Assembly (NCBI GenBank): GCA_046349955.1
Contig: JAXMBI010000030.1
Span: forward strand, 17,302-81,301
DNA: 64,000 nucleotides
From: Pirellulales bacterium
GTDB taxonomy: Bacteria > Planctomycetota > Planctomycetia > Pirellulales > JBGAPH01
Reading direction: 5' to 3'
A program made the translations under genes and the position numbers. Shown one piece after another: positions 5,409 to 42,347 of the stretch. The notes below the pieces were generated by a model. The model saw nothing but the letters and a program-made list of their open reading frames with translations. It was not told the DNA's origin and did not search any database. The number at the start of each line of letters is the position of its first letter. Position 1 is the first letter of the stretch.

Positions 5409-5447
5409 CCGGCTCGGGCCAACGGCCTCACGCAAAAATCTCGATAC

Positions 5448-5479
5448 GGCCTGGCAGCGCTGCCAGGCCGTTTTTCTTT
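5448..5479 (+). terminator. rho-independent terminator after the secretin gene
   Basis: Perfect 9-bp stem GGCCTGGCA / TGCCAGGCC with a GCGC loop, followed by GTTTTTCTTT. It lies 40 nt after the stop codon. Confidence 0.75.
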
Positions 5480-5858
5480 GCGCCGGCGAAAGGAAGGGAG
5501 GGGAGACGGCGGTCGGCACAGCGAGGGTCGACAATGATCCCGACAGCGCGCTCGGCATGCTATCATCCGATGCGGCTGGGCCGCACGTCAGCCGTCGCCC
5601 CTTGAAACGAGCCGAGCTCCTCGTGCTGCGTCACAGCTAGACGATGGGGTTGGCGAGTGGCGGGGTGTACCCCGCCGTGCCGCGCGCTGAGGAAATCGAG
5701 GCCTCCTGTACCGCGAGCCGTGATTGATTCGCTGCCAATTCCCACGACAAGTTGGCTGTGATCGTCGCTTCACTCGCTGAAGGAGTTTGTCGCCGCGGTA
5801 AGCCGGCGGCTCGCTGGGCCATTTGCTCCTCCGTCATGCGGACCCGAAAACGAGCGGT

Positions 5859-6406
5859 GACAAAAGCGCTAGTCGTTATGGTTCAGAAGCCCCCATTCGT
5901 AGTAAGTGTCGTCGATGCCGTAGTGAATCGACAACACAAAGGCGACCAATGTGGCGAGGCAAACCACCGCGCCCAGCCAGTCGGTCCAGGTCGGGCGCCA
6001 TTGCGACCGCACTCAAGGCGTGCGTCACAAGGTAGGCTAGAAACAACCCGCCGGCCAAGCGCTCGGCCTCCAGCCAGCCTGCGAGGCCCGCCGGAAAATA
6101 TAGCGCGGCAGGCAGCAGCCAAACCACCTCGCCAAAACCCAGCCGGCCGCGGCGGCCCCGCAGGTATTGCGCGCCGATGATCGCGGGGCCTGCAATCATG
6201 CCGTTGGCGAACCAGGCAGCACAATAGAACGACTGCCAACGCCCCCCTTCGCCGGCGAGCGTGCCAGCGCGAGCGATCGCCAATCCCGCCGCCGCCGCGC
6301 CGGTGAAAATCAGGGCATCCAGAATCGTCGGCCGACGAAACCGCCGGGCTGGCTCGTGTGCTTGAGTGGCTGGCTGATCGTTCATAGGCGGCTCCTGCGC
6401 AGTCAT
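5859..6406 (-). pseudogene. small integral membrane protein with an apparent frameshift (pseudogene or sequencing error)
   Basis: ORF 5876..6406 encodes TM-like segments and then, about 40 codons before its stop, turns into a low-GC3 Arg/His-rich tail. An adjacent frame from about 6012 to the stop at 5859-5861 has high GC3 and reads ...WTDWLGAVVCLATLVAFVLSIHYGIDDTYYEWGLLNHND, a clean TM helix. A TGA at 6013-6015 blocks that frame further upstream, so the frame switch must lie within about 5975-6012. Confidence 0.5.
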
Positions 6407-6439
6407 TGAGCTCGATCCAAGTCAGGGCGCACATCGCAG

Positions 6440-12389: not shown

Positions 12390-15300
12390 CTACGGCCGGT
12401 CGTCGGCCGAATGACGGGCACGACGCTTGGCGGCCAGCAGACGCTCGGTGTAGCTCTCGGCCGCTGGTTGTTCGGCGGCGAGCTTGGGCGCAGCGCTAGC
12501 TACGGCGCGCACCGCGGGGGCCGGCTCGTCGGCCAGGGCCGCACTCAGATCGCCGCTGAAGGCCGCCGACGGCTCGAACCGCGCGGCCGTTCCTTCGAGC
12601 GATGCCCTCACCGCTTGCTTCGAGCTCTTGAGGCGATCGAGGTATTCCGGCTGCGCGATCGTGCGAGCGCCGCGCAGCCGCGTCCACGCGGCGGCGAGCC
12701 AGCCGTAGAGCCCCGTCGGGTCGACCATCACGCGGCGATTGAAGACGTCGCAGAAGAAGACCGTGGCGGCCAACAGGGCGCACAACGGCCAGGCCATGCG
12801 GCGGCTCTCGGCGAGTTGCAAGTCGCCGCGGAAGACGTCGGTCGCGAGCGCCTGGTCCAAAGTCCAAGCGCCGGCCGGCCCGCCGATGACCTTGCCGTCG
12901 CCGCCGCCGGTGGGCTGCACGCCCGCCAGGTCGGTGAGCAGACGATCGTTCGAGGCCCGCTCGTTGTACTCGGCCGAGTACGGTACGGTGATGCCGGCCC
13001 GCAGCGGCGCTCGCCCGGGGCCAGGCAGGATCGTGAGAAAGTAGGAGCCGGGGCTCGTGGCTTCGAACTCGCCTTGGTAGCGGCCGGGGGCTGTTTGCCG
13101 GATCGACACCGTCTTGGCCGTGAGATCGGGTTCGACCACGGTGGCCGTCATTGTGAGCGCGTTGAGGAAGCGGCTTTCCTCGTCGAGCGCGTTCAGCACC
13201 ACGGTGGCATGGCCATCGCGCTGATCGACGGCGAGCTGGAAGCGGCCGTCCTGATCGGAGGGGCGCAGCGCCCAACGCATCATCTGGGCGAAGAGCTTGT
13301 CGTAGCCGTTCCAATCGGGCCACTGCTTGGCCCAGCGGCGGCCGGCGTCGGTCGTCCAGGCCACGGCCCGCCCCGCGCCAAAGGTCCAGGCGGCGAGCAG
13401 CGTGTTCTCGCGCCCGGCAGGCACGGGAGACATCATGGCCAGCTCCACGAGCGGGCTCTCTTTGAGCGTGGTCATCACGAAGCCGGTCAGCGGCGGCAGC
13501 GCGTCTCCCAGGCCGCGGAGGATCTCTTGATCGCCTACGACCGACGGCGTGAAGCCCTTGTCGTTTTCGTACACCACGGGGCGGGCCACGCGGCGGGCCT
13601 CGTTCACAAAGATTCGCGGGATCGAGCGCGGATTGTCGACCGAGTAGAACTTGCCGCCCCCTTGCTGGGCAATGTTCAGCATCCGCGGCTTATCAGAGCC
13701 CTGCCCCACGGCCACCGTGCTGACCGTGATGTTGGCTGCCCGCATTTGCTTGACCAAAGTGGCGAAGTCGGCCTCGTTCGTCTGGCCGTCGGAGAGCACG
13801 ATCATGTGCTTTACCGAGGCCTCGGTCTGCGCGAGGGAGCGAAAGCCCTCGAGCATGCCGGGGTACATGTCGGTGCCGCCCCCCGGGGTGATCGTGTTGA
13901 TCTGGGCCGTCAGCCGCTCGGGGGACCGCACCGACTGCATGGGCACCACGCGGTAGGCGGCCGAATCGAACGCCACCACGCCCACGAAGTCCTTCGGGCT
14001 GAGCACTTTGACCGCCTCGCGGGCCGCGTTCTTGCTCAGCTCGAGTTTCTCGCCCGACATCGAGCCCGAGCGGTCGATCACGAGCATCAAGGCGCCGACA
14101 GGCACGACCTCGGCCCCTTTGATCTGAAAGTCGACCGGCATCGCCTTCTCGAGCTCGGTGCCTGACCAGCCGCCGGCGCCGAAGCTATTGGGGCCGCCCA
14201 GCATGACCAGGCCCGCGCCGAGCTCGCGCGTGTTGCGCACGAGGAGGGCGATTTGCTGGTCGTTGATCTCGGTGACGCGTTCCCCTTGGTCGTCGCCGGT
14301 GCGGGCTACGTTGGCCAGGATCACCAGATCGTAGCGCTGCAGATCGGCCAGGTTCTCGAAGAGTTCGTTGCTCTTGCGAATCTCGACTTCGAGTTCCTCC
14401 TGCCGCAAGCGGTCGGCCAGCACGTCGAACTCGCCGGGGCTCGTCCAGTCTTCCACCAGCAGAACCCGCCCCTTTCCGCGAACGTGCGTGAAGCTCGTGG
14501 CGCGGTTGTTCTGGGCGTAGCGATCTCCAGACGGCGAGTCGGGAACGAAGCGGGCTTCGTAGGTGTAGAAGTCGGCGGCGTCGATGCGGTCTTGAATCGA
14601 GAGCACGCGCTTGCCGGGGCCGAGCGTAACGTCTTCTTCGACCACAAGGTCCTCGTGCTCGCCGCTGCGGCGGACCACACGGAGCTTGCCATGGGCCGCC
14701 GGCGCCTGCTGTCCGGCCGGCGCTTGGTTGTGAAGCACCACGCGTAAGTCAAAGGGCGCTCCTTGGCGAATCTCCGGCGAGAGCGCGACCTTCTCGACGG
14801 CAACGTCGGGCTGCGGGGCCATGGAAACCGGCAACACGTCGATGCCGATGCCGGCCTCGGCCAGCGCGCGCGCCTGACGCAGCGACTGTCCCAGATTCTC
14901 GTTGCCGTCGCTGATGATGACGATCCGCTTGGCCGAGTCGGGCGGAAACGACGCCTGGGCCAGCTTGAGCGCGGCGGTGAGGTTGGTGTGCTCGCGGTCG
15001 ATAGGGGCTTCGAACGCGGTGAGCTCGAAGTCCCCTTCGATGGGCGGCACCTCGACCGCCGCCTCGCGGCCGAACACGATCACGCCGGCCCTGTCGGCGC
15101 GGAGGCCGCGGCGGTGGGCCCGAACCGACTCGGTGACGAACTTGCGGGCAGCGTCCGACTGGTCGGAGGGCACGCTGAGCGAACGGTCGAGCAGGTAGAA
15201 AACGGTGAGCCGCTCGTGGCGGCGAACCATTTCGGCCTCGGCCAGGGCCATCACGATCAGCACATAGACGGCCGTGCGCAGGGCGAAGGCCAGCCAGCGG

Positions 15301-20301: not shown

Positions 20302-21087
20302 ATGCAAGGGTTCGCCGACGTCCACTGTCATCTCTGCGCCGGCCTGGACGACGGTCCCCGCACTCCCGACGATGCGCTCGAAATGTGCCAAATCGCCTGG
20401 GGCGAAGGCACACGCATGGTCGCCGCCACGGCCCATCAGAATGAATCGTGGCCAGAAGTCACGCCGGCAAGAATTCGCGAATCGGCGGCGACGCTGGCGG
20501 CCCAGTTGGCTGAGCTCGAAGTGCCGCTCGAGATCTTTCCCACGGCCGAGGTCATGGTTTGGGCGGGGCTCGAGGAAGCGTGGGACCGCGGCGAACTGCT
20601 CAGCGTCGCCGACGGCGGCAAGTATCTGCTCATCGAGTTGCCGGGCGGGCTGTTTCTCGATTTGTCTTCGCTGATCGTGGCCTTGCGCGAACGCGGACTC
20701 ACGCCGATCCTCGCGCATCCTGAGCGCCATCCCGAACTGCTTCATTCTCCCGGCGTCATGCAGCGCTGGATTGAGCTGGGCTGCCTGGCCCAGGTGTCGT
20801 CGGGGAGCCTGACCGGCGAGATCGCTCCGCGCGACGTGAAAGTTCTGCGGCAATGGGCGGAGCGGGGGCACATCCACCTCATCGGCTCCGACGGCCACTC
20901 GGTGCGGCGTCGGCCGCCGAAACTGGCGGCGGCGCACCGCGTGCTGGCGGAGTGGATCGGCCCGGCGGCTGCCCGGCAGATTTGCGAGACCAATGGCGCC
21001 GCGGTGTTTCGCGGCGAGCCGATCGAGCCGGTCCGCCCAGCGCGTCCCGCTCCCCGCCGCGGCTGGCTCAGCCGCTTCTTCGAATAG
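20302..21087 (+). CDS. PHP-family protein-tyrosine phosphatase (CpsB/YwqE type)
   Basis: The N-terminus reads FADVHCHLCAGLDDGP, followed by TAHQ, ILAHPERH and IGSDGHS. These are the metal-binding motifs of CpsB-type PHP phosphatases. Confidence 0.85.
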   Translation: MQGFADVHCHLCAGLDDGPRTPDDALEMCQIAWGEGTRMVAATAHQNESWPEVTPARIRESAATLAAQLAELEVPLEIFPTAEVMVWAGLEEAWDRGELLSVADGGKYLLIELPGGLFLDLSSLIVALRERGLTPILAHPERHPELLHSPGVMQRWIELGCLAQVSSGSLTGEIAPRDVKVLRQWAERGHIHLIGSDGHSVRRRPPKLAAAHRVLAEWIGPAAARQICETNGAAVFRGEPIEPVRPARPAPRRGWLSRFFE

Positions 21088-21332: not shown

Positions 21333-21515
21333 ATGTTCAACGCAATCGCGCGATTCTGGCACGATGACGAAGGCACAACCTCGGTGGAGTACGCCGTGAT
21401 GCTGGCGCTGATTCTGGTCGCCATCATCGGCGCCATTGGCAGCGTGGGGGGCCGAACCGGCGGCATGTGGGGCGGCATCAACACCGACCTCACCTCGGCC
21501 GGCTTCGGCAGCTAG
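21333..21515 (+). CDS. flp: Flp-family type IVb pilin
   Basis: 60-aa product MFNAIARFWHDDEGTTSVEYAVMLALILVAIIGAIG... carries the Flp prepilin motif (G / TTSVEY plus a hydrophobic helix). ATG 21333 is preferred over the upstream alternative start at 21294. Confidence 0.85.
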   Translation: MFNAIARFWHDDEGTTSVEYAVMLALILVAIIGAIGSVGGRTGGMWGGINTDLTSAGFGS

Positions 21516-22600
21516 TCTGCGGGGCGGCGCCCGTCCCTCAGGCCCACGAATAGCCGCCGCCATTGTGCCCAGAGTTCCGCTGGGTTAGTCAGTTCGATTA
21601 CGCGATCTCGCCCTGCGCTGGCCAACCGCCCGCGCAGGGCGTTGTTTTGCGCGAGCCGGCCGATCAGCGCCGGTACGTCGGCCGGCTCCGCGGCCAAGAG
21701 GCCGTGTTGTTCCGGAACGAGCATCTCGCGCCACCCCCAGGCATGCTGCACAACCAAGGGTGTGCCGCTGGCCAGGGCCTCGAGGCCGACGCGCGGCCAA
21801 TTCTCCTGGGCGCCGCCATTCACTTGCGCCAAGCAGTGCACTGAGCGCAAGAACTGATCGGCCGGTTCCCCTCCAGGCGGCAACGCCTCGGCCCAACTCG
21901 GGGGCGGCCCCAGCTTCTCTTGCACCTGATCGCTCCAGCCGAGCACCCGCACCTTGAACGGCCGGTAGGGGACCGCCGCGAACAACTCCCAGGTGTCTGG
22001 GTGAAACTTCGAGGGATCGGCGCGCGAGATTCGGCCGACGATGAACTCCTCGCCTGCCGCGTGGGGCAAGGGCCGGAAGGCGAAGTCGGCAAGGTCGAGC
22101 GCTCCGTGGATCAAGTGGCACTGCGCGGGCGACACTCCATAGCGCGTGAGCGTCGGGAGCAGGTTCTCCCGCTGAAATCGCGACTGAAATACATGCGCGT
22201 CGAACGGACCGTACTGTTCGTAGTGCCGCTCTTCCTCGGTGAAGATCCAGGTCATGCAGTTCGCCCAGACGAGCCGGCAACCGAGCGCGCGGAGGTCCCC
22301 GGCCCGGCGGAGAAACTCGTCGTTGCAGAACGACACGACGATCGCGTCCGCCAGACCAGGGACCGAGGCCAGCTCTGCGGGCCCCTCGATCTCGCAGGTG
22401 CGCAACCCCAACGTGTCGCACCGCCGCCGCCACTCGGGCGGGGTGCGCCACGTGGGGATGAGCGTGACCTCGAGGCCGTGGCTGCGCCACAGTTTGAGGA
22501 CGTGCCAGAGCTCGGTGTCAGCGCCGCCCAGCGCACTGGGATAGCCCACGACGAAGATCGGGGGCAGCCCCTGTTCGGCCGCGGCAAACGATGCCGACAT
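21512..22600 (-). CDS. GT-B fold glycosyltransferase (GT4-like)
   Basis: 362 aa. The C-terminal half carries the sugar-donor pocket pattern ENWPRVGLEALASGTPLVV (E-x7-E-like). The stop shares the palindrome CTAG with the flp stop. Confidence 0.75.
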   Translation of the reverse strand: MSASFAAAEQGLPPIFVVGYPSALGGADTELWHVLKLWRSHGLEVTLIPTWRTPPEWRRRCDTLGLRTCEIEGPAELASVPGLADAIVVSFCNDEFLRRAGDLRALGCRLVWANCMTWIFTEEERHYEQYGPFDAHVFQSRFQRENLLPTLTRYGVSPAQCHLIHGALDLADFAFRPLPHAAGEEFIVGRISRADPSKFHPDTWELFAAVPYRPFKVRVLGWSDQVQEKLGPPPSWAEALPPGGEPADQFLRSVHCLAQVNGGAQENWPRVGLEALASGTPLVVQHAWGWREMLVPEQHGLLAAEPADVPALIGRLAQNNALRGRLASAGRDRVIELTNPAELWAQWRRLFVGLRDGRRPAD

Positions 22601-32378: not shown

Positions 32379-33242
32379 CTATCGAGGCCGCGCTACGGCC
32401 ACCAGCAGACTGCCGCGCCCAAGCCATCCGGTAAGCCGGAAGGCCAAGCGCGCAGGGGCCGACAGTTCGCGCTGCACCTGGCCGAAGATGGGATGGCAAA
32501 CGTCGTAGGCGTTGCAGATCAAGACCTCGTAGCCCGCCGATTCCAGCAGGCCGTGCAGCACCGGCCGCGTGTAGGCCAGCATGTGATAGGGCGGCTGTAA
32601 GAAACCGTAGTGGGCGCCCCAGGGGTTCAGCTTTCGCAGCGTGGGGACCAGGCCGTTGTGGTTGGGTACGTCGAGGTGCAACAACCCCCCCGGCGTCAGT
32701 GTCTCGCGGGCCTTGGCCAGGTACTCGTGCGGATTCAGGCAGTGCTCGAGCACCTGGCTCGAGAAGATCACCTCGAATTGCCGCTCGACCGGACGCTGCG
32801 TGAAATCGCCCAACTCGATGGGCAGGCCGATCTCTTTCGTGAAGGCCGTGACCTCGGGGTTGATGTCGAGTCCGGCCCAATCGACGCCGAGCTCGCGAAA
32901 GGCGACGCAGAAGGCGCCGTCGCCGCAGCCCACGTCCAGCAGCGACTCGAGTGGGCGGCCGAGCGTGCGCTCGTAAAACTCCTTGCGGGCTCGCGCCAAC
33001 GGGCGAGCGCTTTCCGCCCGGCGCTGGTGCATCGCCAGCATGTTGCGAGTGTATTCATCCCAGGTGCGAATCGACTGGCTGCCGGCAACGGTGGGGTCGT
33101 CGTCTTCGACCAAGGGCTGCACGTAGGCCAGTCCGCACTTCCCACAGGCGCCAAACGTCAGCGGTCCGCGGCGCCGGGCGGGGCGAAAATCGGGCGATGC
33201 GCAGACAGGGCAAACTTCAACCCTGCGGGCCACGGAGCTCAT
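32379..33242 (-). CDS. class I SAM-dependent methyltransferase with an N-terminal zinc ribbon
   Basis: CPVC-x17-CGKC ribbon. SAM motif I is LLDVGCGDGAF, with acidic residue GLDIN. The Methyltransf_11/23-like core reads VIFSSQVLEHC ... LTPGGLLHLDVP. Start at ATG 33242. Confidence 0.85.
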   Translation of the reverse strand: MSSVARRVEVCPVCASPDFRPARRRGPLTFGACGKCGLAYVQPLVEDDDPTVAGSQSIRTWDEYTRNMLAMHQRRAESARPLARARKEFYERTLGRPLESLLDVGCGDGAFCVAFRELGVDWAGLDINPEVTAFTKEIGLPIELGDFTQRPVERQFEVIFSSQVLEHCLNPHEYLAKARETLTPGGLLHLDVPNHNGLVPTLRKLNPWGAHYGFLQPPYHMLAYTRPVLHGLLESAGYEVLICNAYDVCHPIFGQVQRELSAPARLAFRLTGWLGRGSLLVAVARPR

Positions 33243-33347
33243 GCAATAAATCCGCTTGGGAACAAGCTGAACGACCAGCCCCAACCTCTGCTGCTTAGAT
33301 TCTAGCCTGACGAATGCCGGTCTAACCCCGGATTTTGGCTCCGACCG

Positions 33348-34439
33348 TCAGGCGATTTGCTGGTTGGCCGGACGAGGCGGACTGCCGGTAAAGTCGACCC
33401 GGCAAACCGGCCCCAGCGTGTGCTCGGGCCACACGACCAGGGCGCTGGCCCAGGAGAGCCCCACGCCAAAGGCGCTGAGCACCACCCGCATGCCGGGGCG
33501 CAAGCGGCCGGCGAGCCAGGCGTCGGTGAGGGCGACGGCGACCGTTGAGCCGCCGGAGTTGCCGACGTCGTGCAGCTTGTAGTGCAGCTTCTCGCGAGGA
33601 ATCTTCAGCTTTTTGGCCGACGATTCGATGATCATTTCGCTGGCCTGGTGGAAGATGAAGAGATCTACGTCGTCGACCGTGAGCCCGGCCTTGGTCAGCA
33701 GATTGCCCACCGCCTTGGGCACCATCTTGAGCGTGAACATGAAGATGGCGGCGCCGTCCATGTACATGTCGTCGCCGCGGCGGACGCAGCCGTTCTTGTC
33801 GGTCGTCTCCTGAGCCGATTCCGGCGTGCGCGGATGACGTAGGCCGCTGGTGGGCCAGATCAAGTGCTCGTGCCCCGAGCCATCGGTGCCGAGTTCGAAC
33901 TGCACGAAGCCCTGCCCCTGGGGCGCCCGCTCAAGCAAGGTGGCGGTGCCGGCGTCGCCGAAGAGCGGCACCACCGCCCGGTCCTGCGGATGCAAGAGCC
34001 GCGTCGGCGTTTCCCCAGTGAGCACGAGCGCCCGCTTAGCCAGGCCCGCCATGAGCATGCTATGGGCCGTGGCCAGCGAGTACACGTACTGCGAGCAGCC
34101 GAGATTAATGTCGAACGCGGCACACGAGGTCGGCAGCCCCAGCCGCTGCTGCAGGATACAGGCGGTGGTCGGCAGCAGATAGTCGGGCGTCTGCGTGGCC
34201 ATCAGCAGGAGCTCGATCGACGCGGGATCGATCGCATGCGCCGACAACAGATCCTGCGCGGCGCGAAACGCGAGGTCTGACGCACAGGTCTCCGGCCCCG
34301 CCACGCGACGTTCGAAGATGCCGGAGCTCTCGGCGACCTTCTGCATCGCCTCGGCGCCGAACCGCTCGACGAGCTGCCCATGGGTGAGCCGGTTCTCCGG
34401 CACGTAGTAGCTGGTGGCCAGGATGGCGCTGGAAGTCAT
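33348..34439 (-). CDS. 3-oxoacyl-ACP synthase III (FabH-like KAS III)
   Basis: Catalytic triad contexts are FDINLGCSQYVY (Cys), FIFHQAS (His) and VGNSGGSTV (Asn). The length of about 363 aa is typical. Start at ATG 34439. Confidence 0.9.
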   Translation of the reverse strand: MTSSAILATSYYVPENRLTHGQLVERFGAEAMQKVAESSGIFERRVAGPETCASDLAFRAAQDLLSAHAIDPASIELLLMATQTPDYLLPTTACILQQRLGLPTSCAAFDINLGCSQYVYSLATAHSMLMAGLAKRALVLTGETPTRLLHPQDRAVVPLFGDAGTATLLERAPQGQGFVQFELGTDGSGHEHLIWPTSGLRHPRTPESAQETTDKNGCVRRGDDMYMDGAAIFMFTLKMVPKAVGNLLTKAGLTVDDVDLFIFHQASEMIIESSAKKLKIPREKLHYKLHDVGNSGGSTVAVALTDAWLAGRLRPGMRVVLSAFGVGLSWASALVVWPEHTLGPVCRVDFTGSPPRPANQQIA

Positions 34440-34465
34440 GGTTGCGTCGATCGAGGAGGGATTTG

Positions 34466-34567
34466 AACCACGAAGGCACGAAGACACAAAGCAGATCATT
34501 TCTCGCCAAGGCGCTGAGATCGCAAAGTAATGAACTCGAGCTTTGCGCCCTCTGCGTCTTTGCGAGA
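34466..34567. repeat. palindromic intergenic repeat element, copy A (purine-periodic module plus 27-bp-arm hairpin)
   Basis: AACCACGAAGGCACGAAGACACAAAG at 34466-34491. An imperfect palindrome lies at 34501-34527 / 34541-34567 (22 of 27 positions pair). Both modules recur at 37145-37336. Confidence 0.65.
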
Positions 34568-34578
34568 AATCTCGATTC

Positions 34579-37125
34579 CTAAAACGGTCCGCCTAACGAG
34601 ACCCAGCGGACGAAGCGCTCCATCGGGAAGAGGCCGTCCCAGGGGCTGTCGAAAAAGGTCATGCGGCCGAGGTCGGGAAAGCGCTCGGCGCCGTTGGCAG
34701 CCGCGCGGCGCGCAAACTCCAGCCGCCGCGGGCCGTCGAGCGCCAGCCCCACGGTTTGAATCCCATGGTGGGCAAAGTCGGCCGCGGCCAATACATCGTC
34801 GATCGCGCGCACCGTGATTACCCGCGAGTAGCAGGGCTCGGCCAGGCCGCGCACGCCGAGCTCGTCGTAGAGCACGGTCCACTCGGTGCCGGACGATCGC
34901 CACACGTCGCCCGTCAGCTCGTAACGAATGCGGGCACTCTCCACCTTGGCGGCGGTGCCGGAGTCGATCGGCGCTTTGGGAATGCGGATCGCGGCCTTCG
35001 CCATTTCTTCAGCCAGGCGTTCGGCGAAGCCGCGCGGATCGCACTCAGCACCGCCCCGCTCGACGAAGATCGTGTGCGGCGAGGCGCAGGCATATTGATC
35101 GAAGACCGACGAGTCGGTCGCAGCGCCCCGCGCGGTGCGCTTCACCAGCCGCGGGGTAGCCAGCCGCTCGCGGCCGATCACCATGAACGACAGCTTGGGG
35201 CCGAAGATGATGTCTTCCGAGCCGTAACGACGCGGTAGCGCCAGCACCGATTCAATCGCCTCGCGGCCGCCCCAGGCCAGCCGCACGTCGGCCAGTTGCG
35301 AAAGCTCCGCCGCCGACTCGTAGTCATCGCGCGGGTAGTAAATCACCGCCGTAGCGGCCAGCAGATCGTCTCCGCGCAGCACGCGGCCCGAGGGCGAGGC
35401 CACCTCGAGGCCGCGGAAGGTTTCTAGCAGCGCCGGCAACACACTCGAGAACGTGCTCGCGGCCTTCAGCAGGTTCGCGTTGCGGGTGACCATCGACTGG
35501 GCGAGAGCCAGCATGCCCAACAGCGGCACATTGCCAGCCAACCAGTGGCTCACCAAACCGCGCGGCTGCGCCATCAGCAGCCGGCGGTTGCTGCCGTCTT
35601 CGGGGCGGAATCCATCGAGAAAGCCCCGCGCGCCGCGGAGCGAGCGGTCGGCCGTGTTCCGCATCGAGGGCGCCTGGCACCAACTCGAGAGGAACTGTAG
35701 CCCCTGCTGTCGTAGTGGCCCCAGCGGCGAATCGGGCGCTGCCCAGCGACGGGCCGCTGCGCCGATCAGAGCGATGATCTCGTCGGTCGTGTAATAATCG
35801 AGCCGCGCGCGGGCCGCCTTGAGGCGATCCGCCAGCGCTGGCAAGTCTTCGACCTGCGGCAATGCCTTGAGGTCGATCGGCGTAAGGAAGTTCCGCGGCG
35901 TGTAGTTGGCTTGGCCGTCGAACAGCAGCCGCACGTCGGAGGGCGGCGCATCTTCGGTCGATTGCTGCGCGGCGGCGCGAGCGGCACGCGGCCGGGCCAC
36001 CTTCTCGCTCATGATGTCGCCGCAGCCGCGCACTTCGGCCTTCTTGGCGCGGCCGAGAATGCGGAAGTGCGTGCCTTGCCAGCCGTCAGGACCCGTGCCG
36101 CGCTGCACCACAACGCCCACGTCGTCGGTCAGCACGGCGAGGCCGGGATACGAATGCGGCAGCGGCGTGAGGAACTCGAGCAGCCCTTCCTGCCCATCAG
36201 GCACAGGCTCAAACGTCGTGGGATCGCGGACCACGACTTCAGCGAACGCCGGAGCGCACTTGAGCCCGGTCGGCGAATCGGGGTAGGTGACCCCCATCTG
36301 TTCGGTGAAGCCGTAGAAGTCGACCACCGACTCGGGCGGCACGCCCAGCGCCTGGTGCATATCGGCATTGAAGCGGTCGCGGGCCACGCCTTGGTCGACC
36401 AGCTTCTTCCAGCCGCCGATGTGAATGACCTGCGAGCCAGGCGGCAGCTTGAACGACTTGCCCTGCTCCAGCAGCGGCTTCACCGCGTTGATGTAGAGCA
36501 CAAACGTGAAGCCGAACACGCAGACCGGCTCGCCAGCGGCGCTGAACTCCTCGAGCGCGGCCAGGAAAGCCGGCTCATCGAGCGTGAGCCCGCCAGCGCC
36601 CTGCTGCATGAAGTAGCGGGCTTCGCGGGCGAGGTTCAAGAATCCGCGCACCGCCGCGCCGCGGGCGCCGAGCCCCGTTGGGCCAGCCTGGCGGGGATCG
36701 ACATCCAAAACCAGAAACGGCCGCCGCCGCTGGCCGAGCACTTCGCCGATCACCGACGCGAGAGCCCTCACTTGTCGCTTCGCGGTCAGCTTGTCGACGA
36801 GCACGGTGCTAGGCACGCCGCTCGTGGCTGACGACTGCAGCCGCGTCTTGATCTCGCTCGCATCGACACTGGCCAGCAGTTCGCCGTTTTCCTTGAAGGC
36901 TTGCACCGGCAAGTAGGGGAACTCGGCGTAGTCGGCGAAGGCGTGGTCGAGCGACAGGCCGCGCCGCTCGCAGTAGCGGCGATAGGCCGGGCAATGGGCG
37001 AAGTGATGTCGGTAGGCCTCGTGCAGGGCCTCCATCAGCCGCGCGCGCTTCTGCTCCTCCGGCAACCCATAGGGCGGCAGAGAGAAGAGCTCGTCGATCA
37101 CACTCGTCTGGGCTTCAACCGACAT
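34579..37125 (-). CDS. fused acyl-protein synthetase (LuxE-like) / acyl reductase (LuxC-like), 848 aa
   Basis: The N-terminal half reads ELFSLPPYGLPEEQKRARLMEALHEAYRHHFAHCPAYRRYCERRG ... and has the adenylate-forming core of the LuxE / coenzyme F390 synthetase type. The C-terminal half is LuxC/ALDH-like (LVSHWLAGNVPLLGMLALAQS ... FDQYACASPHTIFVE). The family assignment is from sequence pattern memory, not from a search. Confidence 0.8.
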   Translation of the reverse strand: MSVEAQTSVIDELFSLPPYGLPEEQKRARLMEALHEAYRHHFAHCPAYRRYCERRGLSLDHAFADYAEFPYLPVQAFKENGELLASVDASEIKTRLQSSATSGVPSTVLVDKLTAKRQVRALASVIGEVLGQRRRPFLVLDVDPRQAGPTGLGARGAAVRGFLNLAREARYFMQQGAGGLTLDEPAFLAALEEFSAAGEPVCVFGFTFVLYINAVKPLLEQGKSFKLPPGSQVIHIGGWKKLVDQGVARDRFNADMHQALGVPPESVVDFYGFTEQMGVTYPDSPTGLKCAPAFAEVVVRDPTTFEPVPDGQEGLLEFLTPLPHSYPGLAVLTDDVGVVVQRGTGPDGWQGTHFRILGRAKKAEVRGCGDIMSEKVARPRAARAAAQQSTEDAPPSDVRLLFDGQANYTPRNFLTPIDLKALPQVEDLPALADRLKAARARLDYYTTDEIIALIGAAARRWAAPDSPLGPLRQQGLQFLSSWCQAPSMRNTADRSLRGARGFLDGFRPEDGSNRRLLMAQPRGLVSHWLAGNVPLLGMLALAQSMVTRNANLLKAASTFSSVLPALLETFRGLEVASPSGRVLRGDDLLAATAVIYYPRDDYESAAELSQLADVRLAWGGREAIESVLALPRRYGSEDIIFGPKLSFMVIGRERLATPRLVKRTARGAATDSSVFDQYACASPHTIFVERGGAECDPRGFAERLAEEMAKAAIRIPKAPIDSGTAAKVESARIRYELTGDVWRSSGTEWTVLYDELGVRGLAEPCYSRVITVRAIDDVLAAADFAHHGIQTVGLALDGPRRLEFARRAAANGAERFPDLGRMTFFDSPWDGLFPMERFVRWVSLGGPF

Positions 37126-37144
37126 CGCTGCTCACGGCTGTTCT

Positions 37145-37336
37145 AACCACGGAGACACGGAGGCACGGAGAGAATCTCTTTCAACCACGAAGACACAAAG
37201 ACACGAAGAGAATGCAGATCAACATCTTTGTTTCTCGCAAAGGCGCAGAGCCCGCAAAGGAAAGTCATTCAAAACTTTGCGAGCTCTGCGCCTTGGCGAG
37301 AACTTTCTTTCTTTGTGTCTTCGGGCCTTTGTGGTT
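37145..37336. repeat. palindromic intergenic repeat element, copy B (composite)
   Basis: Two tandem purine-periodic modules lie at 37145-37173 and 37183-37211. A hairpin with 27-bp arms lies at 37233-37259 / 37275-37301. An inverted copy of the module lies at 37307-37336. The left hairpin arm is 23/27 identical to copy A. Confidence 0.7.
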
Positions 37337-37348
37337 AAGCAATTTGGT

Positions 37349-38503
37349 TTACAAGGCTCTTTGCAGGACTTCGTCGATCAGGGCTGGGTCGACGCGGCGG
37401 GGGTTGGCGCGGCAGCAGATGTCTTCGAGCGCGCCTTCGCGGATTGCTGCCCGCTCCGGCACGACGCGGTCGAGGCCGCCTTCGATCACCGTGCGCAAGC
37501 GGTCGTCGGCGTCGAGCGTTGCCCGCAACTCATCGATGCTGGCCACCAAGGCCCGTTCATCGGCCAAGCCGATTTTCTGCGCGAGGCGACGATACCCTGC
37601 CCGCGCTTTATCTTCCATTTGATTCACTTCGATCGACGGCACGAGCAGCGCACCACACGCCAGGCCGTGCGGCACATGGAAGCGGCCAAGCTGATGGGCG
37701 ACCGCGTGGCCGATCCCAGGCACCTTTTGGTTTTGCACCCAGCCGGCCAGCAAGGCGGCCTCCATCATTTCGAGCCGCGCGTCGAGATCGTCGGGATCGC
37801 GGAACGTGCGCGGCAGCGCCGCGAGAATCATTTCCGTCGCCTTCTCGGCCAGCGCGTCGGCCAGCGGATTGGCGAAGTTCGACACGTAGCTTTCGACCGC
37901 ATGGGCCAAGGCATCGAGCCCCGCCGCGGCGATCGCCGCCGGAGGCACGCCGACCGTGAGCGTCGGGTCGAGCACCGCCACGTCAGGCAATAAGTCATGC
38001 GATACGATGGGCCGCTTCCGCCCGGTTGTGGTGTCGGTGAAAACGGCCGCCGAGCTGACCTCGGAGCCGGTGCCGGCGGTCGTTGGCACGGCGACGAAGC
38101 GGGCTTTGCCACGCAGCTTCGGCAGGGCGAACGGCCGAGCAATCCGCTCGACCTCCGCCTCGGGCTGCTCGTAGAACACCCAGGCGAGCTTGGCCGCATC
38201 GAGCACGGAGCCGCCGCCGATGGCCACGATCCAATCGGGGCGTTGCTCAGCGAGCGCGGCCGCTACCGGCTGCAATGATTCGAGACTCGGCTCGCCGCGC
38301 GGGGCCGCCACCAGCCGCATATCGACAGCGCCGATCGCCTTTTCGATACGGGCAGTTAGCTCGGCGTTGGCCAAGATCGACGGCGAGATGATCACGGTTG
38401 CCCGCGCCGCTTCGAGCGACTTGAGCGCAGCCAGGCTGCCGCGGCCGACGAAGATCTCGCCAGCGCTCACAAATCTCGGCAGAGGCAATCGCAGTCGCAG
38501 CAT
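37349..38503 (-). CDS. iron-containing (group III) alcohol dehydrogenase
   Basis: IVAIGGGSVLDAAK nucleotide-binding motif. His-rich metal site contexts are LDALAHAVESY and HAVAHQLG. 384 aa. Confidence 0.9.
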   Translation of the reverse strand: MLRLRLPLPRFVSAGEIFVGRGSLAALKSLEAARATVIISPSILANAELTARIEKAIGAVDMRLVAAPRGEPSLESLQPVAAALAEQRPDWIVAIGGGSVLDAAKLAWVFYEQPEAEVERIARPFALPKLRGKARFVAVPTTAGTGSEVSSAAVFTDTTTGRKRPIVSHDLLPDVAVLDPTLTVGVPPAAIAAAGLDALAHAVESYVSNFANPLADALAEKATEMILAALPRTFRDPDDLDARLEMMEAALLAGWVQNQKVPGIGHAVAHQLGRFHVPHGLACGALLVPSIEVNQMEDKARAGYRRLAQKIGLADERALVASIDELRATLDADDRLRTVIEGGLDRVVPERAAIREGALEDICCRANPRRVDPALIDEVLQRAL

Positions 38504-38675
38504 GATTAGTAGCCAGCACTCTCCGAGTGCTGAATGCTTGGGAAGATCGTTGGTTACTCAATCCGCGTTGTGTCTCGATCTCGCTTCCCGCGAGCGGCGG
38601 GGTTTACCCCCGCCGTCCGGAAACCGCGAAGGGCTTTCTTCGGCTCGTCATCACTCGAGCGTGATCCCGCTTCAG

Positions 38676-40250
38676 TTACGGCACACGGAGTGTGCCTACT
38701 ACTTCGGCCAACCGCTTGGCCAGCTCTTGGCGTTTGGTCTTGCCGGTATCGCTGCGGGGAACCTGCTCGATCAACGCAAAGTGCCCCGGCACCTTGAACT
38801 TCTCGAGCGACGCCAGGCAGTGTTTTTCGAGGGCCACCAGGTCGACGCTCGCGCCTGCGGCCGCCACGATGCCGGCGACGACGGTTTCGCCGGTGAAGCC
38901 GTCGAGCCCTTCGACCCCCGCCACGCCGACGCTCTCGACCCCCGGGAAGCCAGCAATGGCTTGCTCAACTTCCGTGGGATTCACCTTGTAGCCGCCGACG
39001 TTGATGAAGTCCTTGATCCGCCCCGTGATGCTCAGGTTGCCGTCTTCATCGAAGCGGCCGAGATCGCCGGTGTGCAGCCAACCGTCTTGAAACACGGCCT
39101 GCGTCGCTTCGTCGTCTTCCCAGTAACCGCTCGTGACCGTGGGGCCCGAGATCAGCACCTCGCCGCTGCCGTCGGCGATCTCGCGATCAACAGGACGCAG
39201 CTTGATCTGCACGCCGCGCATCGGGCGGCCGACCGAGCGGTATTTTGCCGGCCCCAATTGCGTAAGCGAGGCGAAGCACGAGCGGCTAGCCTCGGTGAGG
39301 CCGTAGTAAACCATGATGTCAAGGGTCGGCAGCAACTCTTGAAGCTGCACGGTGCGCTCCGGCGGCAGGGGCGCCGAGTTGATCACCGTGAATCGCAGCT
39401 TCCGACAACGCTGGGCAAGCACCGGGCCGAACTTGTCGATGAGCATGCCGAAGCCCAGCGGCGTGCCGGGGAAGCCGGTCGCGCCCCATTCGTCGATCGT
39501 CTTGAGCACGCGGCCCACGCGCGTCAGGCCGTTTTCGGTGTACACCGCGCCGCCGGAAAGCAGATTGCAGTAGACGTGCCCTAGGCCGAAGTTGTGCGAC
39601 AGCGGCAGGATCACCACCTCGCGGTCGTCGGGCGTATAGCCGACGAACTCGCAGATGTTTCGCAGGGCGGTCAGCGCGTTGCGATGCGTGAGCTTGACGC
39701 CCTTGGGCCGGCCGGTGGTGCCGGTCGTGTACATGAGGGCGGCCAAGTCGTCGGGCGAGCGGCCGACCGGCGCCGCAAGCGGTTTGGTCGCCATCAATTC
39801 TTCCGCACTGTGGACCGCCGCGCCGTCAGCAGCGCCGTCGGTAGCCTTGCCAAACAGCACCACGCGCTCAACCGTCGATCCAACGACCGCCAGCGACAGT
39901 CGCTCAAGCGAGGCCGAATCGGTCACGAGCACGCGCGGCCGGCAGCTTCCGGCAATCGCCGCGTAGCCGCTCGCGGTGATTTGCGCATCGCAGGGAACAC
40001 TGACCGCGCCCGCCGCGAGCGCTGCAAAGTGCCCCCGCAGCAGGTTCACGCTGTTGGGAAGCACGAGCGAAACGCGGTCGCCCGGCGCCACGCCGAGTTG
40101 CGTGAAACCGCGCGCGAGACGCAAGAGTTGATCGGCCAGCTCGGCGTAGTTGACCGCCTCATTCGGATCGGCCAGCGCAGGGCGATCGTTCCACCGCGCC
40201 GCGCCGGTGGTGACGATCTCGGACAGCAGCGTTACGCCGGGGAATGCCAC
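38676..40250 (-). CDS. AMP-dependent synthetase/ligase (acyl-carrier-protein or CoA ligase)
   Basis: AMP-binding motif MYTTGTTGRPKGV, core YGLTE, and TGDLGRFDEDGNLSITGRIKD. GTG 40250 is the likely start, 8 nt after the upstream ACP stop; the extension to 40409 is Arg/Gly-rich and overlaps the ACP gene. Confidence 0.9.
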   Translation of the reverse strand: MAFPGVTLLSEIVTTGAARWNDRPALADPNEAVNYAELADQLLRLARGFTQLGVAPGDRVSLVLPNSVNLLRGHFAALAAGAVSVPCDAQITASGYAAIAGSCRPRVLVTDSASLERLSLAVVGSTVERVVLFGKATDGAADGAAVHSAEELMATKPLAAPVGRSPDDLAALMYTTGTTGRPKGVKLTHRNALTALRNICEFVGYTPDDREVVILPLSHNFGLGHVYCNLLSGGAVYTENGLTRVGRVLKTIDEWGATGFPGTPLGFGMLIDKFGPVLAQRCRKLRFTVINSAPLPPERTVQLQELLPTLDIMVYYGLTEASRSCFASLTQLGPAKYRSVGRPMRGVQIKLRPVDREIADGSGEVLISGPTVTSGYWEDDEATQAVFQDGWLHTGDLGRFDEDGNLSITGRIKDFINVGGYKVNPTEVEQAIAGFPGVESVGVAGVEGLDGFTGETVVAGIVAAAGASVDLVALEKHCLASLEKFKVPGHFALIEQVPRSDTGKTKRQELAKRLAEVVGTLRVP

Positions 40251-40258
40251 GAGAGTGC

Positions 40259-40525
40259 TCAGGCCGCTCCACGCTGCGCGAGATACCGCTTGAGCAAGTC
40301 CTGCAGGTCGCCAATCGACTCCACGTCGATCGCGTCGGCCACGTCGAAGGCCACATCGAACTCCTTCTCCACGGCCATCAGCAGGTTGACGTGCCCGATC
40401 GAGTCCCACTCCGGCAGGTCGCCGGCCGCCAGGTCTTCGTCATACTGCGAGGGGTCGATCTTGAGGACGTCGAGCACCACTTGCTTCAGCTTCTCTTCCA
40501 CTTGGCCAGCCTCGTTCACTTGCAT
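40259..40525 (-). CDS. acyl carrier protein (88 aa)
   Basis: Phosphopantetheine-attachment context DLPEWDSIGHVNLLMAVEKEF. Acidic four-helix-type sequence. The start overlaps the SDR stop by 10 nt. Confidence 0.85.
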   Translation of the reverse strand: MQVNEAGQVEEKLKQVVLDVLKIDPSQYDEDLAAGDLPEWDSIGHVNLLMAVEKEFDVAFDVADAIDVESIGDLQDLLKRYLAQRGAA

Positions 40526-41262
40526 GTCAGCCCTCCATCCACGATCAATTCGGTTCCGGTGATCCAGCGGGCATCGCTCGAGGCCAGGAAGGCGATCGCC
40601 GCGGCGACGTCTTCCGGCTCGCCCAGCCCCAGCGGGTGCGCGGCCGCGATCGCCTGCGCTTGCTCAGGCGGCAACCCGCCGAGAAAGGCGTCGCTCATCG
40701 GAGTCTTCACGACGCCAGGAACTACGTTGTTCACCCGCACCTTGCGCGGCGCCAGTTCCACCGCCAAGCTGCGGCCCAGCGACAACAGCGCTCCCTTGGC
40801 CGCCGAATAGGCCGATACGGCCGAGCCGCCGCGAATGGCCGCACCCGAGGAGACCAGCACGATGCTGGCGGCTTCTTTGTCGGCCACCTTGACGAAGGCC
40901 CTTACGGCGGCGACCGCGCTGATCACGTTGGCGCGGAACATTTCTTCGTAGTTGGCCGACTGCGACACGGCGAGCGGCCGCGTTTGATGAGCGCCGGCGC
41001 ACAGCACGGCCGCGTGAAACGGGCCAAGCTCCTCGCGGAGCGGCTTGAGCGCCGCGGCGAGCGCCTTCTCATCGACCGCGTCGCAGGCGATCGTGCGGTG
41101 TCCTTCGCCGGACAGTTGGGCAACCGCGGCCGCGAGCTTGTCTTCCGAGCGGGCGACCAGCACCACGCGGGCGCCTTCGTCGGCCAGCCGCTTGGCGGCG
41201 GCCAGGCCGATGCCGGAGGAGCCGCCGGTGATCAGGGCCAGTTTGTTGGCAAAGCGCTGCAT
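40516..41262 (-). CDS. SDR-family oxidoreductase (FabG-like ketoreductase)
   Basis: TGGSSGIG cofactor motif, NVISA, and catalytic YSAAKGAL (Y-x3-K). 248 aa. Confidence 0.9.
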   Translation of the reverse strand: MQRFANKLALITGGSSGIGLAAAKRLADEGARVVLVARSEDKLAAAVAQLSGEGHRTIACDAVDEKALAAALKPLREELGPFHAAVLCAGAHQTRPLAVSQSANYEEMFRANVISAVAAVRAFVKVADKEAASIVLVSSGAAIRGGSAVSAYSAAKGALLSLGRSLAVELAPRKVRVNNVVPGVVKTPMSDAFLGGLPPEQAQAIAAAHPLGLGEPEDVAAAIAFLASSDARWITGTELIVDGGLTCK

Positions 41263-41315: not shown

Positions 41316-41534
41316 CTAGGCCGCGTAGCCCAAGATGTCGCCAAAGGTGCGGAGGTCGGCGATCTTGTTGCGCGGCACCTCGACCCCCAACTCATCGAGC
41401 ACCACGATCAGGCTCAAGAGCTGTACGGAGTCGAAGTTAGGCAGATCGGCGAGGTTGGTTTGCGGCTGCAAGTCGTTCGGCGTCACTTCGAGCAGATCGG
41501 CCACCGCTTCGCGAATTTCCTGTTCCGACGGCAT
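41316..41534 (-). CDS. acyl carrier protein (72 aa)
   Basis: Attachment context LADLPNFDSVQLLSLIVVLDE. Small acidic protein. Confidence 0.8.
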   Translation of the reverse strand: MPSEQEIREAVADLLEVTPNDLQPQTNLADLPNFDSVQLLSLIVVLDELGVEVPRNKIADLRTFGDILGYAA

Positions 41535-41663: not shown

Positions 41664-42347
41664 TTAAGCAGTCGACCCGTCGGTGGCGGGTTTGCTGATA
41701 ATCCGGGCTGGAACCCCCATCACGGTGACATGAGGCTCCACGCTGCGAATTACATAAGAGCTCGACCCTACGGTCGCGCCTTCCCCCACGCGCTTGTAGG
41801 GGTGAATAACTGCATTTGATCCTACAAAGGCCAAGCGGTCAAGGATGCAGCCGCCGTTGAGCTTAGCCCCCGGGCAAAGCTGCGCGAAATCACCCGTAAC
41901 ACTGTGATGACCGACGCCCACCTGGGTGTTGATCAGCACGTGGCGGCCGATCACGGCCTGCGGGGCGATGACGGTGAGGGCGCCCACATAGGTCCCTTCG
42001 CCAATGCTGGCGTCGGGTCCGATCACCACGCTCGAATGCACGAGGGTGGCCGGCCGCAGCCCGCGCGACTCGAGAAAGATGGCGACCTTCTGACGCTGCC
42101 GGTTGGCGCCGATGGCGCCGTGGAACCACGTGCCGGCTCCAAGATCGCGGGCGACCTCTTCGGTTGTGCCGAGGATCGGCAGGTCTTCGTAGGTTTCGCC
42201 CTTGCGGTTGGGGTTATCGTCGGCGAAGCCAAGCACGTTCCAACGGAATTCCTGGGTGCCCGTCTCGTTCATGTCGTGGGCGACCCACAGCACTTCGCTG
42301 CCAAATCCGCCGGCGCCAACGATTACCAGGTTGCGTGTTTCGGACAT
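41664..42347 (-). CDS. NeuD/PglD/VioB-family hexapeptide-repeat N-acyltransferase
   Basis: The N-terminal Rossmann-like LVIVGAGGFGSEV is followed by left-handed beta-helix hexapeptide repeats (VHSSVVIGPDASIGEGTYVGALTVIAPQAVIGRHVLINTQVGVGHHSVTGDFAQLCPGAKLNG). Confidence 0.9.
   Translation of the reverse strand: MSETRNLVIVGAGGFGSEVLWVAHDMNETGTQEFRWNVLGFADDNPNRKGETYEDLPILGTTEEVARDLGAGTWFHGAIGANRQRQKVAIFLESRGLRPATLVHSSVVIGPDASIGEGTYVGALTVIAPQAVIGRHVLINTQVGVGHHSVTGDFAQLCPGAKLNGGCILDRLAFVGSNAVIHPYKRVGEGATVGSSSYVIRSVEPHVTVMGVPARIISKPATDGSTA

Follow-up and report, generated by a model that had tools for sequence, protein, structure and literature searches.

A fused LuxE-LuxC protein, a probable carboxylate reductase of the RfbN/WbeN family, in a Pirellulales genome and its predicted place in a glycan N-acyl-donor module

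The DNA considered here is a stretch of 64,000 nucleotides (nt) from a Pirellulales bacterium (Planctomycetota; assembly GCA_046349955.1, contig JAXMBI010000030.1, positions 17,302 to 81,301 of the forward strand), which we call the window and number from its first letter. Our subject is an open reading frame (ORF) on its minus strand, at 34579..37125, that starts with ATG at 37125, ends with TAG at 34579-34581 and runs for 848 codons without an internal stop; the plus-strand translation of the same interval has many stops. An original prediction, made from the sequence alone, held that this ORF joins a LuxE-type adenylating enzyme and a LuxC-type reductase in one polypeptide. Near-full-length Pfam matches and structure prediction bear this out. 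LuxE (PF04443) spans amino acids (aa) 8-376 of the 848-aa protein (E 1.8e-96, profile positions 16-390 of 391) and LuxC (PF05893) spans aa 446-841 (E 8.1e-82, profile positions 5-401 of 401). Beyond these two, no Pfam domain was found in the ORF, neither PP-binding nor NAD_binding_4. The gene and its parts are as follows.

34579..37125, minus strand: RfbN/WbeN-family bifunctional acyl-protein synthetase/acyl-thioester reductase, 848 aa (ORF, Pfam, 47% identity to RfbN)
35998..37104, minus strand: LuxE-type adenylating and self-acylating domain, aa 8-376 (Pfam, alignment to 7XC6_E, fold match to PaaK1 2Y27)
35935..36036, minus strand: flexible tail and linker, aa 364-397, with the RGCGD motif (predicted local distance difference test (pLDDT), LuxE alignment, family conservation)
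34603..35790, minus strand: LuxC-type, aldehyde dehydrogenase (ALDH)-fold, NAD(P)H-dependent thioester reductase domain, aa 446-841 (Pfam, alignment to 7XC6_A, Foldseek)

The prediction had allowed that two genes might have been merged by a frameshift or a missed stop codon, and related sets with luxE and luxC as separate genes are known (locus L005, described below, and flagellin glycosylation islands), but we give this explanation practically no chance of being right. GC content at third codon positions (GC3) stays between 0.76 and 0.92, in one constant frame, in every 50-codon block of the fused gene. A 98%-identical copy, also of 848 aa, is present in an independent Pirellulales metagenome-assembled genome (P0001/L001, JBGAPH010000022.1). 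More than 200 fused homologues were listed, including some from the isolate genomes of Vibrio cholerae, V. vulnificus, Cerasicoccus and Winogradskyella, and when the single chain is modelled, each of the two domains is predicted with confidence. Given the uninterrupted ORF, the uniform GC3 in a single frame and the homologues with both domains, an artefact of this kind is excluded.

Proteins with this architecture are widespread. Each of two protein searches gave more than 900 significant matches among the candidates scored, and among the matches listed 120 of 120 in each search carry both Pfam domains. The listed homologues are about 770-875 aa long, save for a few truncated or partial entries, and their hosts include Planctomycetota, Verrucomicrobiota, Myxococcota, Magnetococcales, Sphingomonadales (Rhizorhapis), Vibrio, other Gammaproteobacteria and Flavobacteriia (Winogradskyella, Maribacter). 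One cluster (P0127, 825 aa, 176 member sequences) bears the source name RfbN and the description "acyl protein synthase/acyl-CoA reductase"; we equate it with V. cholerae RfbN (VC0251) on the basis of source names and rfb context. The window protein is 47% identical to this RfbN (62% positives over 848 aligned columns, E = 0), and the two have near-identical cysteine motifs, KKAEVRGCGD(I/V)MSEK and FDQ(Y/F)ACASPHTIFVE.

The likeness extends to the neighbouring genes. The V. cholerae locus, the O1 rfb region (L010), begins with manC, manB, gmd, perosamine synthase, a glycosyltransferase, wzm and wzt, continues with RfbK (acyl carrier protein (ACP), 77 aa), RfbL (AMP-ligase, 471 aa), RfbM (iron-containing alcohol dehydrogenase (Fe-ADH), 374 aa) and RfbN (825 aa), and ends with RfbO (hexapeptide transferase), an insertion sequence (IS) element and RfbT. 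In the window, the fused gene likewise stands at the end of a series of ACP, AMP-ligase, Fe-ADH and fused reductase, with an N-acyltransferase gene linked to it. The window Fe-ADH is 42% identical to RfbM over its full length, ACP2 is 31% identical to RfbK (E 9e-16) and has the common GD(L/I)PEWDS motif, and the AMP-ligase is 27% identical to RfbL. The window acyltransferase resembles RfbO in the hexapeptide repeats alone and is of a different subfamily: RfbO is a small hexapeptide protein, whereas the window enzyme is of the PglD/NeuD type. The window also differs from the rfb region in its planctomycete host, in its additional ACP, ketoreductase, ketoacyl-ACP synthase III (KAS III) and methyltransferase, and in having neither perosamine or other sugar-nucleotide genes nor Wzm/Wzt beside the module.

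Architecture, end-to-end homology, both cysteine motifs and synteny all place the window protein in the RfbN/WbeN family. The fusion is neither unusual nor new, and on this point the original prediction needs correcting: sequencing of the rfb region of V. cholerae already brought the same architecture to light, and members of this widespread family are routinely annotated as "acyl protein synthase/acyl-CoA reductase RfbN".

The O1 antigen of V. cholerae is a perosamine polymer acylated with tetronate, and mutations in wbeN, wbeM and wbeL abolish or alter it. The 1995 proposal of Morona et al. (Gene 166:19), as later papers cite it, is said to have assigned to the rfb set the synthesis, from a C4 acid, of the 3-deoxy-L-glycero-tetronate (2,4-dihydroxybutanoyl) N-acyl group of perosamine. 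Judging by the stereochemistry, we presume that L-malate is the precursor in V. cholerae. For RfbL, the acid to be activated is given as 2,4-dihydroxybutanoate, and the acceptor as CoA or the carrier RfbK (PMC12208996, citing Morona et al. 1995).

The catalytic residues of both halves can be traced to the bioluminescence enzymes. LuxE-type enzymes are known to use free fatty acids and to acylate a cysteine on their own C-terminal tail (Cys364, in the flexible motif TRxxKGCxLS), and K238 and R355 are active-site residues of LuxE (PMC9157457). In an alignment to Photobacterium phosphoreum LuxE (7XC6_E), K240 of the window protein corresponds to K238, R359 to R355 and Cys368 (codon 36022-36024) to Cys364; K240 lies within GGWK, and an SSATSG motif occupies aa 98-103 of the same domain. 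In the other half, the peptide FDQYACASPHTIFVE, singled out at the outset as the candidate catalytic context, is present and contains Cys680 (codon 35086-35088), which aligns with the active-site cysteine of LuxC (7XC6_A), the reductase nucleophile. This phmmer alignment begins at LuxC residue 120 and is unreliable for the N-terminal cleft region. Among 60 aligned family members, 38-69% identical to the window protein, K240, R359, the run R366-G367-C368-G369-D370, C680 and H684 are invariant. The linker itself is hypervariable across the family, with the RGCGD motif fixed; the predicted linker peptide, RPRAARAAAQQSTEDAPPSD, is present at aa 378-397 and is Ala/Arg/Pro-rich and disordered.

An AlphaFold2 model built on the 60-member alignment has a mean pLDDT of 89.3 and a predicted TM-score of 0.81. 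Values below 50 occur solely at aa 1-4 and at aa 364-389, that is, over the tail with Cys368 and the start of the linker. In Foldseek searches the C-terminal half matched LuxC best (7xc6_A, TM-target 0.68, root-mean-square deviation 3.4 Å, about 20% identity), followed by members of the ALDH superfamily including acylating aldehyde dehydrogenases and succinyl-CoA reductase, and the N-terminal half matched PaaK1 (2Y27, TM-target about 0.6). Given that the acyl-accepting cysteine of LuxE is conserved as Cys368 within a flexible segment between the domains, it probably serves as a built-in thiol arm that can swing from one active site to the other. With no PCP or ACP domain present, the original prediction was literally right to say that a carrier domain is missing, but it overlooks this conserved cysteine.

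A split relative helps to place the junction. In a gammaproteobacterial locus (L005, 8287-13300), genes for an ACP, an AMP-ligase, LuxE (354 aa) and LuxC (422 aa) are followed by one for an aminoglycoside-3-N-acetyltransferase-like protein (PF02522). Its LuxE and LuxC are encoded separately and are about 35% identical to the window protein, and its LuxE carries the same tail motif (...EVKGCGD), terminating with "...AAEVKGCGDTI" about five residues past the cysteine. Since the split LuxE ends right after the cysteine motif, the fusion junction lies immediately after the acyl-cysteine tail. In contrast to the window, L005 had no Fe-ADH by tblastn, which suggests that the aldehyde may have a different fate in split systems.

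With the separate LuxC and LuxE(-LuxD) of bioluminescence (P. phosphoreum, 7XC6), the window protein has in common the catalytic domains, residues and fold, and the predicted relay from acyl-AMP to tail acyl-S-Cys, reductase acyl-S-Cys and aldehyde. It differs in being one chain, in its identity of about 20%, and in its expected substrate, a short polar acid rather than myristate. Orthology to the bioluminescence LuxCE was rejected on the equivalog scores (NF052244, LuxE, 106.1 bits against a cut-off of 550; NF052251, LuxC, 84.6 against 750) and on context: Pfam annotation of the neighbours of the fused gene gave no luxA, luxB, luxD or luciferase. The same enzyme families also occur in glycan-modification loci, where split luxE and luxC accompany ACP, FabG and AMP-ligase genes in flagellin glycosylation islands of Aeromonas and Enterobacteriaceae, sets described without biochemistry (PMC7874193, PMC4875605). 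In the literature searched we found nothing relevant that links LuxE/LuxC genes to specific N-acyl groups.

The resemblance to a carboxylic acid reductase (CAR; A-PCP-R) is one of analogy: both would use ATP and NAD(P)H to turn a carboxylate into an aldehyde by way of a thioester on a swinging arm. The adenylating domain of the window protein lacks the C-terminal subdomain of the ANL family and resembles the N-terminal domain of PaaK/LuxE, its arm is predicted to be a protein cysteine on a disordered tail rather than a phosphopantetheinylated PCP, and its reductase has the ALDH fold rather than the SDR fold. Membership among the CARs was rejected on the missing PP-binding and NAD_binding_4 matches and on the ALDH/LuxC fold of the C-terminal half.

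From 42347 down to 32379 all genes lie on the minus strand. At one end the block borders on rpsI, rplM and dprA, and at the other end on dnaE and a gene for an unassigned membrane protein of 673 aa. Besides the fused gene it contains the following.

41664..42347, minus strand: NeuD/PglB/VioB (PglD-type) amino-sugar N-acyltransferase, 227 aa (TIGR03570, 186.6 bits against a cut-off of 160.8; PglD_N and Hexapep)
41316..41534, minus strand: ACP1, 72 aa, add-on gene (PP-binding, E 5.7e-09)
40516..41262, minus strand: short-chain dehydrogenase/reductase (SDR), FabG-like ketoreductase, 248 aa, add-on gene (Pfam adh_short_C2, KR)
40259..40525, minus strand: ACP2, RfbK-like, 88 aa, with a GDLPEWDS motif (PP-binding; match to RfbK)
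38676..40250, minus strand: RfbL/WbeL-like AMP-dependent ligase, about 524 aa from GTG at 40250 (Pfam AMP-binding and AMP-binding_C)
37349..38503, minus strand: RfbM/WbeM-like Fe-ADH, 384 aa, predicted to carry out the aldehyde-to-alcohol step (Pfam Fe-ADH and ADH_Fe_C)
33348..34439, minus strand: KAS III (FabH-type), about 363 aa from ATG at 34439, add-on gene (Pfam; PRK09352, 265.8 bits against a cut-off of 249)
32379..33284, minus strand: class I S-adenosylmethionine (SAM)-dependent methyltransferase with an N-terminal Cys4 motif, the last gene on this strand (Pfam Methyltransf_23/11/12)

As had been predicted, the Fe-ADH gene is directly upstream of the fused gene and the cluster holds two ACP genes, both above the Pfam PP-binding cut-off. 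The longest ORF of the ligase starts from 40409 and overlaps ACP2; the GTG at 40250 fits the 524-525 aa of the ligases at L006 and L012. The KAS III has kept the Cys/His/Asn motifs of condensing enzymes, and its best alignment is to 3GWA, a structure of the FabH type. We set aside the idea that this gene encodes an acyltransferase-type KAS III-like enzyme, because the motifs are intact and the FabH-subfamily cut-off is exceeded. The only other polysaccharide-related genes identified within the examined part of the window, for a CpsB/CapC-type PHP tyrosine phosphatase (20302-21087) and a GT1-like glycosyltransferase (21512-22600), are some 20 kb away from the module.

The gaps on either side of the fused gene (34462-34578 and 37126-37348) contain copies of one repeat. 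Its unit TTCTCGCAAAGRCGCAGAG occurs four times, always in these two gaps (0.06 expected by chance), and forms hairpins (37232-37259 with 37275-37302, 93% complementary). These gaps also hold a GTGTCTTCGTGGTT-type unit, and a 69-nt inverted pair brackets the fused gene (34466-34534 against 37268-37336, 83% complementary). Given that the equivalent gaps in Opitutus measure just 2-10 nt, the repeats look like insertions akin to repetitive extragenic palindromic (REP) elements or miniature inverted-repeat transposable elements (MITEs). In the 172-nt gap between the ligase and Fe-ADH genes (38504-38675), opposite frames translate to ...HGVCLLL and ...TECAYYF; this sequence may resemble short repeats common in planctomycete intergenic regions.

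We compared 14 loci by tblastn and by Pfam annotation of the neighbourhoods, counting L001 as the window's own genome and hence outside the eight other distinct fused loci (L002-L004, L006-L010, L014). The core module of ACP2, ligase, Fe-ADH and fused reductase is together in 7 of these 8, the sole exception being L007, where tblastn did not detect an ACP2 homologue, and the Fe-ADH gene adjoins the fused gene in all eight. Hosts of the core module include Myxococcota, Rhizorhapis, Vibrio and Verrucomicrobia. It usually sits amid PglC-like (Bac_transf), PglF-like (Polysacc_synt_2), DegT aminotransferase, NeuB and glycosyltransferase genes, and homologues of the PglD-type acyltransferase are linked to it in L002-L004, L009 and L013. 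The add-on of ACP1, SDR and KAS III co-occurs solely in the window/L001, in Opitutus (L002/L012) and in L014, which are three distinct lineages, and the methyltransferase, among the loci compared, is confined to the window/L001 (Pirellulales).

Other genes accompany the module in particular lineages. Downstream of the fused gene of L003 (Limisphaerales), a short KAS III-like match of about 86 aa (12668-12925) stands without ACP1 or SDR and may be a remnant of the add-on. A Glyoxalase_4 gene (PF13669), absent from the window's module, is found beside the module in L006 (Myxococcota, 6397-6816), L008 (Vibrio-like, 12498-12881) and L009 (Rhizorhapis, 5096-5569). In two Verrucomicrobia loci an EpsI gene (PF11984, exosortase-associated) directly follows the module (L012, 13628-14332; L013, 12784-13497), which hints at a link to exopolysaccharide systems of the PEP-CTERM/exosortase type.

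We consider it likely, with a probability of roughly 0.7, that the ORF encodes a two-domain carboxylate reductase of the RfbN/WbeN family that works inside a module for making glycan N-acyl donors. In the scheme we propose, every chemical step, the order of the steps, the substrate and the acceptor are predictions. By homology to LuxE and LuxC, the LuxE domain would adenylate a free carboxylate with ATP, by means of K240 and R359, and the acyl group would then pass to the domain's own Cys368 on the disordered tail (aa 364-389). This tail, which continues as the linker, could swing into the LuxC domain and hand the acyl group to Cys680, where reduction with NAD(P)H would free the aldehyde. The RfbM-like Fe-ADH would convert the aldehyde to a primary alcohol. 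This path from carboxylate to aldehyde to alcohol had been foreseen by the original prediction and is exactly what has been assigned to RfbN and RfbM, the homologous pair in V. cholerae. Next, the other end of the molecule may be activated by the RfbL-like ligase and the hydroxy-acid loaded onto the RfbK-like carrier, ACP2, from which the PglD/NeuD-type acyltransferase would attach the hydroxy-acyl group, through its amino group, to a nucleotide-linked amino sugar that would go into a surface polysaccharide.

Given that the KAS III keeps its Cys/His/Asn motifs and aligns best to 3GWA, the add-on looks like a unit for one round of elongation and ketoreduction. With ACP1 as carrier, KAS III and the ketoreductase would lengthen the chain by two carbons and introduce a 3-hydroxyl, and the methyltransferase might add a methyl group. 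With KAS III, ketoreductase, a second ACP and methyltransferase added to the core, the product of the locus is probably not tetronate itself; a longer acyl group of about C5-C6, either polyhydroxy or omega-hydroxy and possibly bearing a methyl group, is the probable outcome. More tentatively, and with the odds against it, the extended module may make an N-acyl substituent that has not been described, such as a 3,omega-dihydroxy C5-C6 acyl group, perhaps O-methylated, on a planctomycete or verrucomicrobial surface glycan. Such a group would arise through reduction of a distal carboxylate and a two-carbon extension on a carrier.

Several points weigh against the glycan N-acyl-donor reading. No amino-sugar biosynthesis genes (PglF/PglE/PglC-like) flank the module in the window, so that the acceptor is proposed solely from the acyltransferase family and from the relatives of the module. 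The ligase has just 27% identity to RfbL, and the acyltransferase, by its sequence, is of another hexapeptide subfamily than RfbO. At 47% identity the substrate need not equal that of V. cholerae RfbN, and the role given to the add-on genes is a guess. In the literature searched we found no published enzymology for any RfbN-family member, and the chemistry of the family has accordingly been a hypothesis since 1995.

According to the original prediction the substrate may be the free distal carboxylate of a diacid tethered to an ACP. Such a diacid could be loaded by the ligase, or KAS III and the ketoreductase could assemble it on ACP1 from a dicarboxyl primer; the LuxE domain would then adenylate the distal carboxylate, and reduction to aldehyde and alcohol would follow with the chain still tethered. 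The block does bring together two ACPs, a ligase and KAS III, the LuxE domain would require merely a free carboxylate, KAS III relatives that take dicarboxyl primers exist (e.g., 3-oxopimeloyl-ACP synthase 9J6E, a weaker match in the PDB), and reduction on the carrier would presumably spare the cell a free reactive semialdehyde. We nevertheless consider it rather unlikely. RfbL is placed on 2,4-dihydroxybutanoate that is already reduced, so that reduction would precede loading (PMC12208996), the core module, with its single ACP and no KAS III, works without chain building on an ACP, and LuxE enzymes are known for free fatty acids (PMC9157457). If reduction of an ACP-tethered diacid were true, a LuxE/LuxC enzyme would be carrying out on-carrier tailoring of a new kind.

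A genuine fatty-acid reductase, which would take medium- or long-chain fatty acids to aldehydes and, with the Fe-ADH, to fatty alcohols for a lipid, wax or "liposugar", strikes us as very improbable. The domains are those of the bioluminescence enzyme, the authors of the flagellin glycosylation island papers speculate on lipid-modified glycans (PMC7874193, PMC4875605), and KAS III, the ketoreductase and the ACPs are enzymes of the fatty-acid-synthesis type. Set against this are the LuxE and LuxC scores far below the NCBIfam equivalog cut-offs and the lack, within the block, of LuxD and of the dehydratase or enoyl reductase needed for a full elongation cycle. The module is linked to a sugar N-acyltransferase, and the closest genetically assigned member of the family, RfbN, is tied to a C4 hydroxy-acid substituent. 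On balance the earlier observation of a LuxE-LuxC fusion is confirmed and its interpretation is supported in part, and we retain the glycan N-acyl-donor reading.

From the perspective of the family, what remains of particular interest is the extended variant of the module, together with the enzymology that we could not find in the literature searched. The fused protein, with a cysteine as its swinging arm, would lend itself well as a model for the route proposed in 1995 to acids of the 2,4-dihydroxybutanoate type, and such a compact, carrier-free enzyme could also be put to use in reducing the carboxylates of short polar acids. For annotation, the labels "acyl-CoA reductase" and "LuxE/PaaK family acyltransferase" in such contexts would point to the synthesis of glycan N-acyl donors rather than to bioluminescence or lipid metabolism. 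We suggest that the rfbKLMN-type module is not a peculiarity of Vibrio but a widespread, portable unit for hydroxy-acyl decorations of glycans.

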